Source: a virus (lineage: Duplodnaviria; Caudoviricetes). From it: DNA of 36,890 nucleotides. The translations under genes were made by a program, and so were the position numbers. The notes under the pieces are model-generated. The model was not told the DNA's origin and searched no databases. It saw only the letters and a program-made list of their open reading frames with translations. Shown piece by piece: positions 10,105 through 35,607 of the stretch. The stretch spans positions 1 to 36,890 of IMG/VR virus record IMGVR_UViG_3300028369_000016. One strand, given 5' to 3'. Every line of letters starts with the position of its first letter. Position 1 is the first letter of the stretch.

Positions 10105-11496
10105 ATGGTAGACACAGTAGCGAAACAGACTGCCACGATGGCCGCAATGGTGCAGGCTGGCGCTAAGGGGCGCGCGCTGATGTCCGGCACGGCTGGCATG
10201 CGCAAGGAAGGCACGCGATACCTGCCGAAATTCAAGGCCGAGGCCGAGGATGATTATCAAGCGCGCCTGCATTCGTCCTGGCTGTTCAACGCGCTGCGCA
10301 AAACCATCAAAGACATGACAGGCCGGGTGTTCGACAGCCCTATTGAGATACAGGACGCGCCGCAACAGATCATTGACATGACCGAAGATATTGACATGCA
10401 GGGCCGCGACCTGAGCGTGTTTGCGTCCGAGGTGTTCAAGGACGCGTTTGTGCCTGGCGTTAGCTACATCATGGTTGAGGCACCCCGCCGCAATGCAGAC
10501 ACCACGCGCGCTCAGGCGGCTGCACAGGGCTTGCGTCCGTATCTGGTGCATCTACGAGTGGAGGACGTGCGGGGATTCAAGCCCGGGCTGTTTGGCAACG
10601 TGCTGGCCTTGGCGCAGTTGCGCATCCGTGAAACCGTTAGCGAGGACGATCCAGAAGGCGAGTTTTCGCAGGTTGAGGTTGAACAGGTGCGGGTGCTGGA
10701 CCGCCTGCCCGATGGTGTGCGAGTGCGGCTGTATCGCCAGAACAGCAAGAAGCACTGGGCGGTAGTTGATGAATATATGACCGAAGCGCCTGAAATCACG
10801 GTGATTCCGTTCTATGCCCAGCGCACGGGGTTCTTTACCGGCGAGCCGGTCCTAGAGGATTTGACCGACGTCAACATCGCGCACTGGCAGTCGCAATCTG
10901 ATCAGCGCAACATTCTCCACTTTGCTCGCGTGCCGATCCTGTTTGCATCCGGTCGCGGTGATGACGAGCCATTGACGATCAGCGCGGGAACGGCGGTCGT
11001 ATCACGCGACGTTGGCGCGACCCTGCAATGGGTTGAGCATAGCGGCAAGGCGATCGACAGCGGACGGCAAGACCTGAAAGACCTTGAATTTCAGATGCAA
11101 ACGCTTGGCCTGCAATTGCTGGTGGCGCGCGCGCAGTCCGCAACCGGGGCCGCGCTGGATGCTGTCAAGGAGACCAGCACGCTTGCCATGATGGCGGACA
11201 GCCTCAAGGACGCGCTGGAACAGGCGCTGCAATGGATGGCGTTCTATGCAGGGCTTGGCGATGTGTCGATCACGGTAAACGTCAACAAGGAATTCGGCGT
11301 TACGATGATGACACCGCAGGAAGTGCTGGCGATGCAGAAAGACGTTGCGATGGGCTATCTGACGCTGGAAACGTATTTTGAGGAACGCAAGCGGCGCGGT
11401 GTGTTGCGGCCTGACTTGGACACGGCGGCGGAATTAGACAGGCTGGCGGCGACTGCGCCTGCGCTGACTGGCGCGCCGATGGGATTGGGGGAATAG
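10105..11496 (+). CDS. Portal protein (DUF4055-like)
   Basis: YLPK...E....Y..RL, RPY, NIAHWQSQSD...ILH.ARVP; follows TerL. Confidence 0.9.
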   Translation: MVDTVAKQTATMAAMVQAGAKGRALMSGTAGMRKEGTRYLPKFKAEAEDDYQARLHSSWLFNALRKTIKDMTGRVFDSPIEIQDAPQQIIDMTEDIDMQGRDLSVFASEVFKDAFVPGVSYIMVEAPRRNADTTRAQAAAQGLRPYLVHLRVEDVRGFKPGLFGNVLALAQLRIRETVSEDDPEGEFSQVEVEQVRVLDRLPDGVRVRLYRQNSKKHWAVVDEYMTEAPEITVIPFYAQRTGFFTGEPVLEDLTDVNIAHWQSQSDQRNILHFARVPILFASGRGDDEPLTISAGTAVVSRDVGATLQWVEHSGKAIDSGRQDLKDLEFQMQTLGLQLLVARAQSATGAALDAVKETSTLAMMADSLKDALEQALQWMAFYAGLGDVSITVNVNKEFGVTMMTPQEVLAMQKDVAMGYLTLETYFEERKRRGVLRPDLDTAAELDRLAATAPALTGAPMGLGE

Positions 11497-11535
11497 ATGG
11501 CATACATGAAAAAGCGCAAGCCGAAGAAATAACCC

Positions 11536-13689
11536 ATGGCCAGCGTAAACACCGAAATCCTTGACAGCATCACTGGCCGCGCGTTGGACCTGCAACGGCT
11601 GACGGCCACGCAGTTGCGCGACAGTGCGATGTTCCTGCGCACGTTGGAAGGCGATATCGTGGCGCAACTTGCCCGCATCGACCCGACAGGCATAGCGGCA
11701 CCATCGCGGCAGGCTGCGCGGCTGGAAAAGCTGCTGGACCAAACCCGCGAAACAATACGCAACGCATACCGGGCAGAATCCACGCGCCTGGTGGGTGAGT
11801 TGCGCGAGTTGGCGGATATCGAGACACAGTTTGCGGCGTCGTCAATAAACAAAGCCGTGGGCGCAACCTTAATCACCACAAGCATTACGCGCGGGCAGCT
11901 TGTAGCGATTGTTGACGGCGTGCTGATCCAAGGCGCGCCCGTGTCGGATTGGCTCTCACGGCAGGCTGGTGACACGCTGCAAAAATTCACTGACGCCATG
12001 CGGATGGGCATTGCAGAGGGAGAGACAAACGCCAGCCTGATCCGGCGCATACGGGGCGGGGTGCAGGGCGGCGAACCCGTGCAAGGCTTCATGCAGGTTT
12101 CGCGGCGCAATGCGGAATCGCTGGTGCGGTCGGCAACGCAGGCTGTTTCGCAGAAGTCGCGGCAGTCGCTATACGAGGCCAACCAGGATTTGGTGAAGGC
12201 GCTGCAATGGGTATCGACCATTGATCTGCGCACGACGATTGACTGCGCCACACGCGACGGGCTGACATACACCGTTGAAGGCCACGAGCCTATTGGCCAC
12301 ACGCTGCCGTGGGGTGGCGGGCCGGGGAATCTGCATTGGGGCGCTTTGGTCGAAGGCACGCTAATCAGGACAAAGGCGGGGCTTGTCCCAATCGAGTTTA
12401 TAAAGGTTGGCGATCTTGTCCTAACCCACCTTGGCAGGTGGAAGGCGGTCACTGATACGAAGTGCAAGCGACTTGAGGGCGGCGTCGTCCGGGTGATAAA
12501 CACGAAGTCCGGCGGGGTTCTCAGGGCAACGGATGACCACCCCATATTTGCGGGCGGGTGGAAATTCGCGGGTTCCTTGAAGGTTGGGGATAATTTGCGC
12601 AGCGATACTTATCGCATGAAGGAAGTAATCCGGGCTTGCCGCCTTGTCGCATCGGAATCGGAATATGGTCCAACCTTGACGGACGAGGGCAGCATCGCGG
12701 TTAAGCGAGCGCTCAAGCTTGTGGCCCCCGACATCGGGTTCGAATGCGCATCTAATATCTGGGCGGGCAAAATCGAGAACCGCGCAATCGAAATGGTATT
12801 GCGAGACCCACTTGCCATCCAAAGGGATCAAAGCTTCAGACATCATATGCTCTCTGTCGCTCATGTTCTCTCTGAAGTAGGACGAAATCGTCTTGGCGAC
12901 CTTGTATCTGTGATCGTGACTGAGGGGGATACCACCAAGCCTCGCGCGCATGGTGTCAGCAAAGCCGTTGGCGCGTTTGGTTGCGTTGGCCTTGGCGATA
13001 GTTTCAGGAACTTTGCTGGGGTTATTAAGCGTCATGCGCAACGATGCTTTGGCATACTTGACGTGGGTTTCTTTGGTGTGGCCGAATCCCCAATGGTCAG
13101 CGCCGGAGGGGTTAACAATGTTTCCGCTGGCGTGGTCAAGTCGGGCTTGGTCGGTTTTGTTGCGGACGTCCATACCGTGCCGCTTGGCATAGCTGGACAG
13201 AATGCCGTTGCTAAATCCTTCCTCTCTCTCAATCCTGCGAAGGGAGAATCCGTCGGTGATGTGGCGTCGAGTGATGATGTCTGCAAGGGCAGGATTGAGT
13301 TTGGGCATGATGTGGTCCTTTCATTGGGCTTGCAGACTTATAGCGGGCTTGTTTACGATTTGGAAGTGGAAAGTGACGCGTCCTATATCGCAAACGGGGT
13401 TGCAGTTTCGAACTGTCGATCGACTTCCGTGCCCGTTCTCAAGTCGTTCCGCGAACTCGGCATTGACCTAGACGAAGTGCCACTATCCACGCGCGCAAGC
13501 ATGGACGGGCAGATTGCCGAGGATACCACGTTTGAAGGGTGGCTATCGCGGCGCACCGTTGCCGAGCAGGGCGAGGTTCTGGGCGTTGGCCGTGCAAAAC
13601 TATGGCGCGACGGTGAAATATCGTTCCGGGATTTGGTGGATGGAAATGGCAGACCTTTGACCTTAGAAGAACTACGCGCTAGAATTTAA
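11536..13689 (+). CDS. Head morphogenesis protein (MuF/SPP1 gp7-like), intein-containing
   Basis: R.AE.LVR, WVSTIDLRTT..C..RDG, then P..HWG|intein|CRST. Removing the intein leaves a 360-aa protein with the HxxCRS motif restored. Confidence 0.9.
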   Translation: MASVNTEILDSITGRALDLQRLTATQLRDSAMFLRTLEGDIVAQLARIDPTGIAAPSRQAARLEKLLDQTRETIRNAYRAESTRLVGELRELADIETQFAASSINKAVGATLITTSITRGQLVAIVDGVLIQGAPVSDWLSRQAGDTLQKFTDAMRMGIAEGETNASLIRRIRGGVQGGEPVQGFMQVSRRNAESLVRSATQAVSQKSRQSLYEANQDLVKALQWVSTIDLRTTIDCATRDGLTYTVEGHEPIGHTLPWGGGPGNLHWGALVEGTLIRTKAGLVPIEFIKVGDLVLTHLGRWKAVTDTKCKRLEGGVVRVINTKSGGVLRATDDHPIFAGGWKFAGSLKVGDNLRSDTYRMKEVIRACRLVASESEYGPTLTDEGSIAVKRALKLVAPDIGFECASNIWAGKIENRAIEMVLRDPLAIQRDQSFRHHMLSVAHVLSEVGRNRLGDLVSVIVTEGDTTKPRAHGVSKAVGAFGCVGLGDSFRNFAGVIKRHAQRCFGILDVGFFGVAESPMVSAGGVNNVSAGVVKSGLVGFVADVHTVPLGIAGQNAVAKSFLSLNPAKGESVGDVASSDDVCKGRIEFGHDVVLSLGLQTYSGLVYDLEVESDASYIANGVAVSNCRSTSVPVLKSFRELGIDLDEVPLSTRASMDGQIAEDTTFEGWLSRRTVAEQGEVLGVGRAKLWRDGEISFRDLVDGNGRPLTLEELRARI
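12343..13413 (+). mobile_element. Intein (357 aa) with Ala1 and Ser-Asn/Cys C-terminus, KlbA/class 2-like
   Basis: Block A ALVEGTLIRT..G.VPIE.IKVGDLVLT; block B LRATDDHPIF; block F VYDLEVESDASYIA; block G NGVAVSN followed by Cys+1. Confidence 0.92.
12421..13308 (-). CDS. Putative homing endonuclease (basic NUMOD3-like DNA-binding region plus Vsr/DUF559-like nuclease), antisense inside the intein
   Basis: SDRE...L...WVSQY...LDFARPDIRCAFEPDVGGH...RDAALVRQGWTIFRF matches the DUF559/Vsr pattern. N-terminal SLRRI HTH-like segment, HWGFGHTKET and LSHDHRYKVAKT. AAAGGA SD lies 7 nt before the ATG. Confidence 0.82.
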   Translation of the reverse strand: MPKLNPALADIITRRHITDGFSLRRIEREEGFSNGILSSYAKRHGMDVRNKTDQARLDHASGNIVNPSGADHWGFGHTKETHVKYAKASLRMTLNNPSKVPETIAKANATKRANGFADTMRARLGGIPLSHDHRYKVAKTISSYFRENMSDREHMMSEALIPLDGKWVSQYHFDCAVLDFARPDIRCAFEPDVGGHKLERSLNRDAALVRQGWTIFRFRCDKAASPDYFLHAISIAAQIIPNLQGTREFPPARKYGVVIRCPENPAGLRVYHPDDAALKSLALRISDRLPPAKVG

Positions 13690-33215: not shown

Positions 33216-34559
33216 TTAGCCCTTCGGTTTCAGCGCAGACAGCAATGACTTTTGCGTTGCGTCTTTGCTGGCCAAGACATTCAAAACCCGCTCGTCAATC
33301 GTATCGCGCCCGACAAGATGAATAATACGGACAGGGCGCGCCTGCCCCTGGCGATGCAGTCGGGCATTGAATTGTAGATAGTATTCAAGGTTCCACGTCA
33401 TCCCAAACCAAACACACAGCGCCCCGCCGCTTTGAAGATTCAGGCCATGCCCGGCACTTGCAGGATGGGCCAGCAACATCGGGATACCTCCACAGTTCCA
33501 GCGGTCTATCGTGCTTTGCTCTTTGTCCAGCGCAACAGCCTGCGGAAAGCGTTTGCGCAATCTCTCCAAGTCGCTTTTGAAGTTATAAGCGACAAGCATG
33601 GTTTCGCCCGCGTTATCATCCACAATGTCGGAAAGGGCATCCAGCTTTGCCTTGTGTGTTTCACACCAAGCGCCGTTGGCGTCGGTATACATTGCCCCGT
33701 TGGCGTATTGCATCAGCTTGCCCGCAAGCACGCCAGCGTTGATAGCCTCAACTTTGTGGCCGTCATCAAGTTCGGCTAGTGAAGTCTTTTCAAAATCTTT
33801 ATACCCCGCAAACGCTTTTGCCCCCAAATCGACAGGGGCAGTGATGTCAATCCTGTCTGGCAGATCAAGGTAGTCATCTGCGCTCATGTGCATGACGCAA
33901 TCCGACACAAGGCCCTGTATCTTATCGGCAGACCCGGCCCGCAATTCGTATCTGTGTCCAAAGTAATCAGTGTCGAAGAACCGCTGGCGAAACCCTGTCA
34001 GGGTTCGGCCAAGGCGTTGCCCATAATCAACCAAATACATCTGCGCCCATAAATCGTGCAAGCCGTTCGGGCTGGGCGTTCCTGTCAGCAAAACCATCCG
34101 CTGGATGTTCGGCAACATCTTTTTCAGAGCCTTGAACCGCTTGCTTTGCGCGTTTTTGAACGTGCTGCTTTCGTCAATCACAACCATGTCAAACGGCCAG
34201 TTGTCACTATAATGGGCAACGATCCACGGGACGTTCTCTTTGTTTATGACGTAGACATCAGCCGACTTGAACAACGCCGCCGTGCGCGCCCTAACCGGAC
34301 CTGTCGCCACCGACACCCGCAAGTGTTCAGTATGCCCCCACTTGCGCGCCTCCTGCGCCCACACGCTATTGCAGACGCGCAAGGGCGCAATCACAAGCAC
34401 CTTGCCAACAAGGCCCGCGCCGATCATGTCAGCGATGGCTGTCAGTGTTGACACCGATTTGCCCAAACCCATATCCAAAGCAAGGACGCAGCCTTTTTTT
34501 TCAATCGCGTAGTCAACGGCTTTTGCCTGATACTCGTGCATGTCATCCCGTGAAAGCAT
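33216..34559 (-). CDS. SNF2-family helicase
   Basis: LDMGLGKS, IAPLRV, VIDESS, LTGTP, HPASAGHGLNLQ and RLHRQGQ. Confidence 0.93.
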   Translation of the reverse strand: MLSRDDMHEYQAKAVDYAIEKKGCVLALDMGLGKSVSTLTAIADMIGAGLVGKVLVIAPLRVCNSVWAQEARKWGHTEHLRVSVATGPVRARTAALFKSADVYVINKENVPWIVAHYSDNWPFDMVVIDESSTFKNAQSKRFKALKKMLPNIQRMVLLTGTPSPNGLHDLWAQMYLVDYGQRLGRTLTGFRQRFFDTDYFGHRYELRAGSADKIQGLVSDCVMHMSADDYLDLPDRIDITAPVDLGAKAFAGYKDFEKTSLAELDDGHKVEAINAGVLAGKLMQYANGAMYTDANGAWCETHKAKLDALSDIVDDNAGETMLVAYNFKSDLERLRKRFPQAVALDKEQSTIDRWNCGGIPMLLAHPASAGHGLNLQSGGALCVWFGMTWNLEYYLQFNARLHRQGQARPVRIIHLVGRDTIDERVLNVLASKDATQKSLLSALKPKG

Positions 34560-34812
34560 TGGCGTCATCCTTGCTGTCGATGATCCGCACATCACAACCC
34601 AAAGCCCGTCGCCTTGCATGGTCTCGCCCCTGCAACTCGGTCGGCTTTTTGCCCGGTGCTTTCAACTCGACAAAAACAACCCGGCCACCCGGCAGTGTTA
34701 CAATGCGGTCAGGCACAGACCTGCGCCCTGGTGATGTGAATTTTTCGCATGTTCCCCCAAGGGTTTTGACGCGGCGCACAAGCGCGTTTTCAATATCTTT
34801 TTCAAATGTCAT
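34543..34812 (-). CDS. VRR-NUC domain nuclease (in frame with the upstream C5 MTase)
   Basis: EKDIE..L...V...GG...KF.SPG...VPDR......G...FVELKAPG...T.LQ; GGAG upstream of ATG 34812. Confidence 0.85.
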   Translation of the reverse strand: MTFEKDIENALVRRVKTLGGTCEKFTSPGRRSVPDRIVTLPGGRVVFVELKAPGKKPTELQGRDHARRRALGCDVRIIDSKDDANAFTG

Positions 34813-35607
34813 TTGCCAACACTCCGCCGCAAGTATAGCGCGGCCTATGAGTTCGGGGATTTGGGGGACAACGGCGTTGCCGACAGCGCCTAATCTAGCC
34901 ACGAGGTCGGGAACCCCATGAGGCTCAGGGAGAAACGGGGATTCGCCGACCAATCCCCCGGCCGATCTTGCATCAAGACAGCGCGATGAAGCCAGTGCAG
35001 TTGCCGCTTGGGCTTGCCCGTAGACCGTAGCACTGCACTCCGATGCGAAAGACGGTAAAACCCACGCCCGTCGTTTTTGCTTGGGGTAGGCCACAATCCA
35101 GACACGCTCTCTCGCATGAGGTAGTCCCATTGCCCATGCCGGTATATTTCGCCACTCTGCATCGAACCCGCTGCCGGCCAAGTCTGACAAAACTCGGCTA
35201 AACCATCCACCTGGCCTGACAGAAGGGCCACTAAGCAAGTCTGCGACGTTTTCAAAGATTGCGTATTGGGGTCGTAACTCGCCAACCAATCGGATACACT
35301 CGGACCACAAACCGCTGCGGGTGCCATCCCCAATGCCGGCCTGCTTTCCAGCGCAGCTAATGTCTTGGCATGGGAAGCCGCCCGTGATGACATCAACGGC
35401 AATTCCATCCCGTCGAAGAATGTCGCCTGTGAGTTTGGTAACATCTTCATATTGCGGCACCTCCGGCCAATGTTTCGCCAACACCCTGCGCGGGAATGGC
35501 TCTATTTCGCAAAACGCAACTGTTTCAAATCCGCCTGTGCGCTCAAGTCCAAGGCTAAATCCTCCGATGCCGGAAAAAAGATCGAGGACGCGCAATTTGT
35601 CAGTCAT
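34543..35607 (-). CDS. C5-cytosine DNA methyltransferase (alpha polypeptide), reading in frame into VRR-NUC
   Basis: LDLFSGIGG (I), GGFPCQD (IV), ENV (VI), PHARERVW (VIII) and GNAVVP (X); motif IX is absent from this frame. Confidence 0.9.
   Translation of the reverse strand: MTDKLRVLDLFSGIGGFSLGLERTGGFETVAFCEIEPFPRRVLAKHWPEVPQYEDVTKLTGDILRRDGIAVDVITGGFPCQDISCAGKQAGIGDGTRSGLWSECIRLVGELRPQYAIFENVADLLSGPSVRPGGWFSRVLSDLAGSGFDAEWRNIPAWAMGLPHARERVWIVAYPKQKRRAWVLPSFASECSATVYGQAQAATALASSRCLDARSAGGLVGESPFLPEPHGVPDLVARLGAVGNAVVPQIPELIGRAILAAECWQMTFEKDIENALVRRVKTLGGTCEKFTSPGRRSVPDRIVTLPGGRVVFVELKAPGKKPTELQGRDHARRRALGCDVRIIDSKDDANAFTG
34890..35450 (-). CDS. Alternative-frame beta polypeptide of the C5 MTase (TRD plus motif IX)
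   Basis: +1 frame inside the MTase gene; LWPTP...D.RG and terminal NPRFSLSLMGFPTSW (motif IX-like). Confidence 0.72.
   Translation of the reverse strand: MKMLPNSQATFFDGMELPLMSSRAASHAKTLAALESRPALGMAPAAVCGPSVSDWLASYDPNTQSLKTSQTCLVALLSGQVDGLAEFCQTWPAAGSMQSGEIYRHGQWDYLMRESVSGLWPTPSKNDGRGFYRLSHRSAVLRSTGKPKRQLHWLHRAVLMQDRPGDWSANPRFSLSLMGFPTSWLD

Follow-up and report, generated by a model that had tools for sequence, protein, structure and literature searches.

How can one stretch of phage DNA serve as part of a protein-splicing element on one strand and as a nuclease gene on the other, and how might such an element splice if it begins with alanine? Both questions are raised by a MuF head morphogenesis gene in a 36,890-nt tailed-phage genome, IMG/VR record IMGVR_UViG_3300028369_000016 (the window, a term used here for this whole stretch of DNA). 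The MuF open reading frame (ORF; 11536-13689, plus strand) encodes 717 amino acids (aa), intein included, and a second ORF crosses the intein on the minus strand. The reading that we consider likely is that of a MuF intein harboring an antisense, predicted Vsr/EDxHD-type homing nuclease, with self-splicing probably by the class 2 route. A first-pass annotation of the window had proposed a contiguous intein with blocks A, B, F and G intact; contiguity holds, and block A is not the ordinary one it was taken for, residue 1 being Ala.

Intein boundaries

Natural empty alleles define the ends of the element. Thirteen MuF loci related to that of the window were recovered from IMG/VR, of which 10 were examined and three with partial N-extein matches (L038, L040 and L041) were set aside. 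Two of the 10 are identical to the window, one (L039) is frameshifted, and seven (L031-L037) are intein-free. The latter encode an uninterrupted MuF of 350-360 aa with 88-96% N-extein identity to the window. Because they read through the junction NLH[WF]G/CRSTS without an insert (the slash marks the insertion point), the intein ends are exact. Matches of the intein to the Pfam families Hint and Intein_splicing were both under the Pfam cut-offs.

Selection acts on the minus strand of the insert

A second allele of the intein (L003, L004, L005 and L008), from a different phage with a 972-aa MuF, shows 160-162 differences over 1071 nt and has both frames open. Ratios of nonsynonymous to synonymous substitution rates (dN/dS) were calculated by the Nei-Gojobori method for the window versus L004. 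For the 236 codons of the insert between the two splicing domains, dN/dS was 1.15 on the plus strand and 0.11 on the minus strand; in the splicing parts that the minus-strand ORF does not overlap, it was 0.06 on the plus and 2.5 on the minus strand. Plus-strand values were 0.02 for intein aa 1-27, 0.10 for the C-terminal splicing domain and 0.09 for the first 80 codons of the C-extein. The 112 substitutions in the insert fell at plus-strand codon positions 1, 2 and 3 in numbers of 73, 14 and 25, and plus-strand position 1 corresponds to minus-strand wobble. Purifying selection is seen on the minus strand in the insert and on the plus strand in the splicing domains. That these ratios come from a single allele pair weighs on the other side.

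The same comparison bears on the possibility that the plus-strand insert is the functional product and the minus-strand ORF a chance shadow of it. In its favor, the plus frame is open and the gene, at 57% GC, is rich in long shadow ORFs; one of 396 aa on the minus strand (11355-12545) lies over the N-extein. The per-strand test refutes this alternative. Moreover, the minus-strand ORF matches DUF559 and the plus-strand insert no family: the plus-strand peptide of the insert (12601-13299) had no Pfam match at E<=1 and no PHROG match at E<=0.1, and its best ESM Atlas score, 0.82, was uninformative. The 396-aa ORF is itself a shadow, matching DUF819 only at E=0.17 and being absent in L004. We give the chance-shadow explanation a negligible probability and regard it as practically certain that the minus-strand gene is real and selected. 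The first-pass annotation had described the insert as antisense shadow protein and had suggested a per-strand dN/dS comparison; the result, a constrained minus strand and a plus strand near 1, upholds that description. Its 295-aa ORF (13308..12421) is likewise as claimed, as are the shared codon register of the two frames and the AAAGGA located 7 nt upstream of the ATG.

The plus frame is kept open across related loci

We compared 19 loci, namely the window, L004 and 17 cultured or annotated phages that had been chosen from tblastn hits of two nucleases when the reading frames were still unknown. L012 and L024 (other layouts), L014 and L029-L041 (intein-free, partial or identical), L042-L044, and the near-duplicates L001-L003 and L005-L008 were excluded. 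The loci are not independent, as they include four Guernseyvirinae and two pairs of near copies. All 19 have an open host frame with a codon-aligned antisense ORF, and a nuclease profile (A2) matches every antisense ORF and none of the plus-strand inteins. In these nuclease genes TTA, CTA and TCA, which would place stop codons in the host frame, do not occur, versus 177 occurrences expected from extein codon usage. For the window alone the count is zero among 22 Leu and 19 Ser codons (5.8 expected from the codon usage of eight other window genes; P about 0.002). The plus frame of the insert is kept open, by the codon avoidance that had been postulated from the window sequence. Cys+1 and the terminal Asn are also kept at all 19 loci. 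With the host frame unbroken throughout, the further suggestion of a split-intein precursor is unsupported.

Probable dual coding across block B

One part of the earlier picture does not stand. The nuclease was thought to be confined to the insert; its ORF instead extends 59 codons into the N-terminal splicing domain (aa 28-86), and it passes through block B in 19 of 19 loci. Within the overlap, dN/dS was 0.22 on the plus and 0.47 on the minus strand, and dS was lowered on both strands (0.26 versus 0.87 and 0.17 versus 0.68). The minus-strand reading of the Ile/Val codon at B:12 could be Asn, Asp, Tyr or His. It is Tyr at 16 loci and His at three, although the ATA/GTA share of Ile/Val codons in the exteins is only 3-37%. 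The same column in a 46-row alignment of the nuclease family holds 36 Tyr and five His. Two predicted strands of the nuclease (residues 257-261 and 264-270) fall in the overlap, and its superposition on Vsr extends to residue 268. About 59 codons, including block B, are read as constrained on both strands and thus as true dual coding, with shared ancestry inflating the counts; telling against this, the overlap figures derive from 59 codons and about 17 substitutions.

Family and predicted fold of the antisense protein

A separate antisense nuclease of the Vsr/DUF559 type had been predicted from motifs, and the searches agree with that prediction. The minus-strand ORF scored 21.1 bits against Pfam DUF559 (cut-off 20.6), has full-length homologues at 62% and 52% identity, and belongs to a family with 186 representatives at E<=0.001. 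Asn96, Glu153, Gln170, Asp179, Glu190, Asp192 and Arg217 do not vary across the 46-row alignment, and 41 of its rows retain His196. Glu190, Asp192, His196 and Asp205 of the window nuclease are candidate counterparts of the conserved Glu, Asp, His and Asp of the EDxHD homing endonucleases. A profile built from this alignment matched the DUF559-type structure 3HRL at E=4.5e-15, and an earlier four-sequence profile matched no solved structure.

[quoted passage not shown] The model was compared with Foldseek, and the Foldseek matches were then re-aligned with VIA-align. Foldseek returned 3HRL and I-Bth0305I with probabilities of 0.96-0.99. In VIA-align the top match was I-Bth0305I (3R3P; Z 8.9, root-mean-square deviation 2.5, 92 residues), followed by 3HRL (Z 8.6) and Vsr (1CW0; Z 7.2). 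The N-terminal half is helical with pLDDT >90, and its matches to helix-turn-helix (HTH) folds are weak (Z 3.5-3.7). The NUMOD3 label first given to this half is not borne out, no Pfam NUMOD family having matched the nuclease. Some observations pull away from the nuclease assignment. The Foldseek E-values for the nuclease matches were only 0.14-0.41 (0.32 for I-Bth0305I), two mitoribosomal chains (Z 8.2 and 8.0) tie with the nucleases in VIA-align and another reaches 7.3, and the window protein has Ser201, five residues after His196, where 37 of 46 family members have Asp.

I-Bth0305I (PMC3239194; PDB 3R3P) is a member of the EDxHD family, which the available text of that paper defines by a Vsr-like fold and an N-terminal DNA-binding half. 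The window protein resembles it in a putative DNA-binding N-terminal half, a Vsr-like C-terminal domain and, putatively, the conserved Glu, Asp and His. It differs in genomic setting, I-Bth0305I residing in a group I intron and its relatives between split-intein halves, whereas the window gene lies antisense in a contiguous intein. The window protein also lacks a NUMOD match and has Ser201 for the common Asp, and its activity is predicted.

Low-sensitivity searches found no relatives of the window nuclease in GTDB genomes and none of the Vibrio phage nucleases (below) in IMG/VR. The nuclease of coliphage Snoke alone matches 103 of 50,697 phage records. In Acinetobacter phage P1068 (L024:1106-1999), a relative of the Snoke nuclease is free-standing and convergent, and it abuts the 3' end of a 258-aa MuF that lacks an intein; this gene may be ancestral to the intein-nested form or left over from it. 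In Corynebacterium phage phi673 (L012:2324-2968), a related, unannotated Vsr-like nuclease lies within a helicase intein and is read from the same strand in a different frame.

Splicing class of the Ala1 intein

The intein of the window carries Ala1, Thr B:7, His B:10, Asp F:4, Ser G:6, Asn G:7 and Cys+1, with Leu rather than Cys at position 2. The class 3 triplet Trp B:12, Cys F:4 and Thr G:5 (WCT) is absent, these positions being Ile, Asp and Val. Class 1 is ruled out by residue 1, which is neither Cys nor Ser at the boundary set by the empty alleles, and class 3 by the lack of the WCT triplet. According to the accessible portion of PMC2807308, class 2 inteins have neither an N-terminal nucleophile nor the WCT triplet, and the window intein has neither. 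As of 2014, according to the available text of PMC4031507, every known class 2 intein was a KlbA orthologue with Ala1 and Ser G:6. Every signature residue of the window intein, and the absence of WCT, is shared with KlbA of Methanocaldococcus jannaschii and its orthologues (PMC4031507, PMC2807308). Differences from KlbA are the host, a phage MuF rather than archaeal KlbA, the presence of an antisense nuclease, the absence of any special sequence closeness, and a mechanism that is predicted. Our literature search found no report of a class 2 intein in MuF, most subscription papers lying outside its coverage.

The full class 2 signature is common to the window and the related inteins P0005, P0006 and P0156. 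In the splicing-domain tree a single branch separates the seven Ala1 rows from all others (support 99/99; no outgroup), and the nuclease tree separates the five Ala1 loci with DNA in the same way (100/99; no outgroup, and with a long-branch warning). The clade includes the cultured Vibrio phages 1.082.O (L010), 1.266.O (L009) and 1.265.O (L011). Within these three inteins, Cys2 may or may not join in splicing. As to the earlier suggestion that a free-standing endonuclease gene may have invaded a mini-intein, no mini-intein of the Ala1 clade turned up in a search that was not exhaustive.

From this signature a class 2 mechanism is predicted. Translation of the head operon would yield the 717-aa precursor, in which Cys+1 would attack the Gly/Ala1 peptide bond directly, aided by Thr63, His66 and Asp339. 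Cyclization of Asn357 would then release a 360-aa MuF, and the 236-residue shadow peptide would depart with the intein. That the intein splices at all we judge very likely from its residues, and on balance we expect that it does so by the class 2 route.

The alternative accepts the antisense homing nuclease and replaces class 2 splicing with cleavage only, as in bacterial intein-like (BIL) domains, with another internal nucleophile, or with poor splicing in a phage for which MuF is dispensable. Some MuF proteins are non-essential. The best solved match of the N-terminal splicing domain is the BIL domain 2LWY (E=1.2e-11), well above M. jannaschii KlbA 2JMZ, which ranks fourth (E=0.0035) among class 1 and class 3 inteins. 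The Vibrio relatives begin Ala1-Cys2 and have Asn F:4, in place of Asp, and His G:6, which means that the class 2 signature does not hold for the whole clade. A further point unfavorable to class 2 is the later designation of one non-KlbA putative class 2 intein as a pseudogene, in the accessible part of PMC3196547. Against the alternative, purifying selection acts on the splicing domains and on both exteins, the universal retention of Cys+1 and terminal Asn goes together with a plus frame held open against codon usage, and the window intein has Leu2 and every class 2 residue. We consider the alternative improbable and continue to favor class 2 splicing.

Whether the phage MuF lineage evolved class 2 splicing independently of archaeal KlbA, with block B truly overprinted by the nuclease, is to us an even wager. 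If both were true, nuclease and splicing domain would not be separable by simple deletion.

Distribution and predicted homing

The seven closer relatives of the window MuF are empty, and a more distant MuF (62 differences per 200 aa) contains a copy of the intein that is 85% identical. Contigs that join across the intein were present in six of eight sequencing runs examined (X4, X10, X1, X5, X9 and X12). Since their identity is about 85-90%, they stem from related phages and not from the same phage; X1 may be the run from which the window itself derives. Some runs with intein-free contigs also contain intein sequence. This patchy distribution fits homing, and it is quite probable, in our estimation, that the nuclease drives it. 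In a mixed infection, the nuclease would cut the empty H[WF]G/CRS site of a related phage, and repair would copy the 1071-bp element.

A nuclease could also be selected for something other than homing of this intein, such as harm to co-infecting phages, or could have lost its site, with patchiness left to repeated loss or ordinary recombination. Several findings lean that way. Two gains are not required by the extein tree, which is unresolved. With dS for the intein at 0.68-0.87, only moderately lower than the 1.1-1.4 of the exteins, any transfer of the intein was not recent. Ser201 replaces a usually conserved Asp, a related nuclease lies free beside an intein-free MuF in L024, and in several runs the summed contig depth of the intein is far below that of the exteins (about 5-9 versus 150-440 in X10), depth being no copy number. 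Set against these, fold and motif match a characterized homing endonuclease, the groupings of nuclease and splicing domain agree between the two trees, and vertical descent needs repeated precise loss among L031-L037. A function other than homing is in our view unlikely, slightly more so than the absence of class 2 splicing, and we retain the homing nuclease as the better account.

Relation to described systems

The accessible text of a preprint by Gosselin, Arsenault and Gogarten (bioRxiv 10.1101/2025.01.02.630785) describes full inteins with antisense VSR-like nucleases in actinobacteriophages, links these nucleases to 3R3P and proposes invasion by a free-standing nuclease. The minor capsid (IPR006528) inteins in that text all have non-canonical nucleases, and antisense LAGLIDADG cases from 1998 are cited, as are Gorbalenya 1998 and Dassa 2009. 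The window shares with these inteins a contiguous intein, a probably unstructured in-frame insert, an antisense VSR-like/EDxHD nuclease and a helical N-terminal nuclease part. As far as the accessible text goes, the preprint covers class 1 and class 3 inteins only, whereas the window intein has Ala1 and no WCT; it places second ORFs typically outside the splicing domain, whereas here block B is crossed in 19 of 19 loci; and it contains no per-strand selection test. The antisense layout itself is already in print; what exceeds that preprint is the splicing domain, with its Ala1 and class 2-type signature, together with the overprinting of block B. The earlier statement that no characterized example was known is therefore half right: the layout had been reported, and our literature search found no experimental characterization of an antisense-nuclease intein. 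Beyond the preprint, it found no report of an antisense VSR-like nuclease in an intein.

Profile A2 matched the antisense ORFs of Malisha (E=2.6e-16), Vivi2 (E=5.5e-13) and Sejanus (E=4.8e-11) in a 19-sequence file. Gordonia phages Vivi2 and Malisha have MuF inteins and Mycobacterium phage Sejanus a head-gene intein, all at the same insertion site as the window; we infer that these are the VSR-like cases of the preprint. Two other Gordonia phages, Lennon (L042:1397-2100) and Barsten (L043:1397-2074), have Cys1 inteins at the same MuF site with an antisense ORF in which a LAGLIDADG-like motif, AAFIDGEG, was read by eye and without a profile. Vivi2 (L015), whose extein is very similar to theirs, has the Vsr-like antisense ORF, which makes two antisense nucleases at one site.

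Nucleases in a hidden frame of a host gene that is kept open are also described, in the available texts, for a cyanobacterial dnaX intein (bioRxiv 10.64898/2026.09.14.751524) and for the HNH insertion of phage ShiLan (PMC11855218), which has no splicing domain. Both differ from the window in a +2 or third-frame ORF with a LAGLIDADG or HNH fold.

The antisense layout has so far been described by computation only and is easily missed in annotation. In 17 of 18 annotated phage regions with the nuclease inside a host gene, the host gene alone is annotated; the Snoke record marks the intein and no nuclease gene. What the window contributes is evidence of selection strand by strand, naturally empty alleles that can act as substrates, and carriers in culture, and this opens the layout to direct testing. 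Such carriers are Vibrio phages 1.082.O, 1.266.O and 1.265.O in the Ala1 clade and coliphage Snoke in the Cys1 clade.

Candidate expression signals of the nuclease gene

The antisense transcript would begin in or beyond the C-terminal splicing region, and the nuclease would be translated from its own ribosome site. The AAAGGA that could serve as this site is unusual against synonymous shuffles of the plus-strand codons (P=0.005). Speaking against separate expression, no antisense promoter in the window is significant, the best score having P=0.22 versus synonymous shuffles. A consensus promoter scan gave no minus-strand site, and one plus-strand site versus 0.8 expected. Across the 19 loci, promoter scores had P<0.05 at six, four of them close relatives. 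Several Cys1 relatives have a minus-strand TGnTATAAT within blocks F and G. In four Guernseyvirinae (L013, L017, L027 and L028) and in L018 and L023, this motif lies within the block G codons, 45-54 nt upstream of the nuclease start, with P of 0.008-0.03 in five of the six versus synonymous shuffles (L018, P=0.125). The nuclease gene is co-oriented with the replication genes, and our guess is that it is expressed during replication.

Genome context

Terminase, portal, MuF, scaffold, major head, connector, tail and lysis genes of the window lie on the plus strand, and genes for a polymerase, a helicase, an exonuclease and a single-strand binding protein on the minus strand. Sequencing runs that contain window DNA are labeled as lake water or salt lake metagenomes, and no RNA run is among the 24 listed. 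The MuF gene is flanked by portal and scaffold genes, and its N-extein also matches Pfam Phage_Mu_F (E=2.1e-6), slightly below the family cut-off. Coordinates of the features are collected in Table 1.

Table 1. Features of the MuF locus, in window coordinates
Feature	Position	Strand	Remarks
MuF (head morphogenesis) N-extein	11536..12342	+	269 aa, C-terminal end NLHWG; phrog_241, E=6.5e-105
Contiguous intein	12343..13413	+	357 aa, Ala1 to Asn357; 1071 bp; followed by Cys+1
N-terminal splicing domain	12343..12600	+	Block A Ala1; block B Thr63 (12529-12531), His66 (12538-12540), Ile B:12
Predicted Vsr/EDxHD-type endonuclease gene	12421..13308	-	295 aa, codon-aligned with intein; nuclease fold about aa 148-268
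Dual-coding stretch	12424..12600	-	Last 59 nuclease codons over intein aa 28-86; YGVVIR strand is antisense of block B
Plus-strand insert	12601..13308	+	236 codons, antisense shadow of nuclease gene, stop-free
C-terminal splicing domain	13309..13413	+	Asp F:4 (13357-13359), Ser G:6, Asn G:7
Shine-Dalgarno-like AAAGGA	13316..13321	-	7 nt before nuclease ATG, inside intein C-terminal region; identical in second allele
Weak candidate -10, TATAAG	13337..13342	-	28 nt upstream of nuclease ATG; same place in L004; not significant
MuF C-extein	13414..13689	+	Cys+1 first (CRSTS); agrees with intein-free relatives

Among three methyltransferase genes in the window, one DNA methyltransferase ORF (34543-35607, minus strand) has a C-terminal endonuclease match (phrog_93, aa 265-352). 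In the second phage (L004:3858-4700, reverse strand; P0005), MuF is extended at its C-terminus by about 250 aa that include THEYGH, a motif resembling a zinc metalloprotease site.

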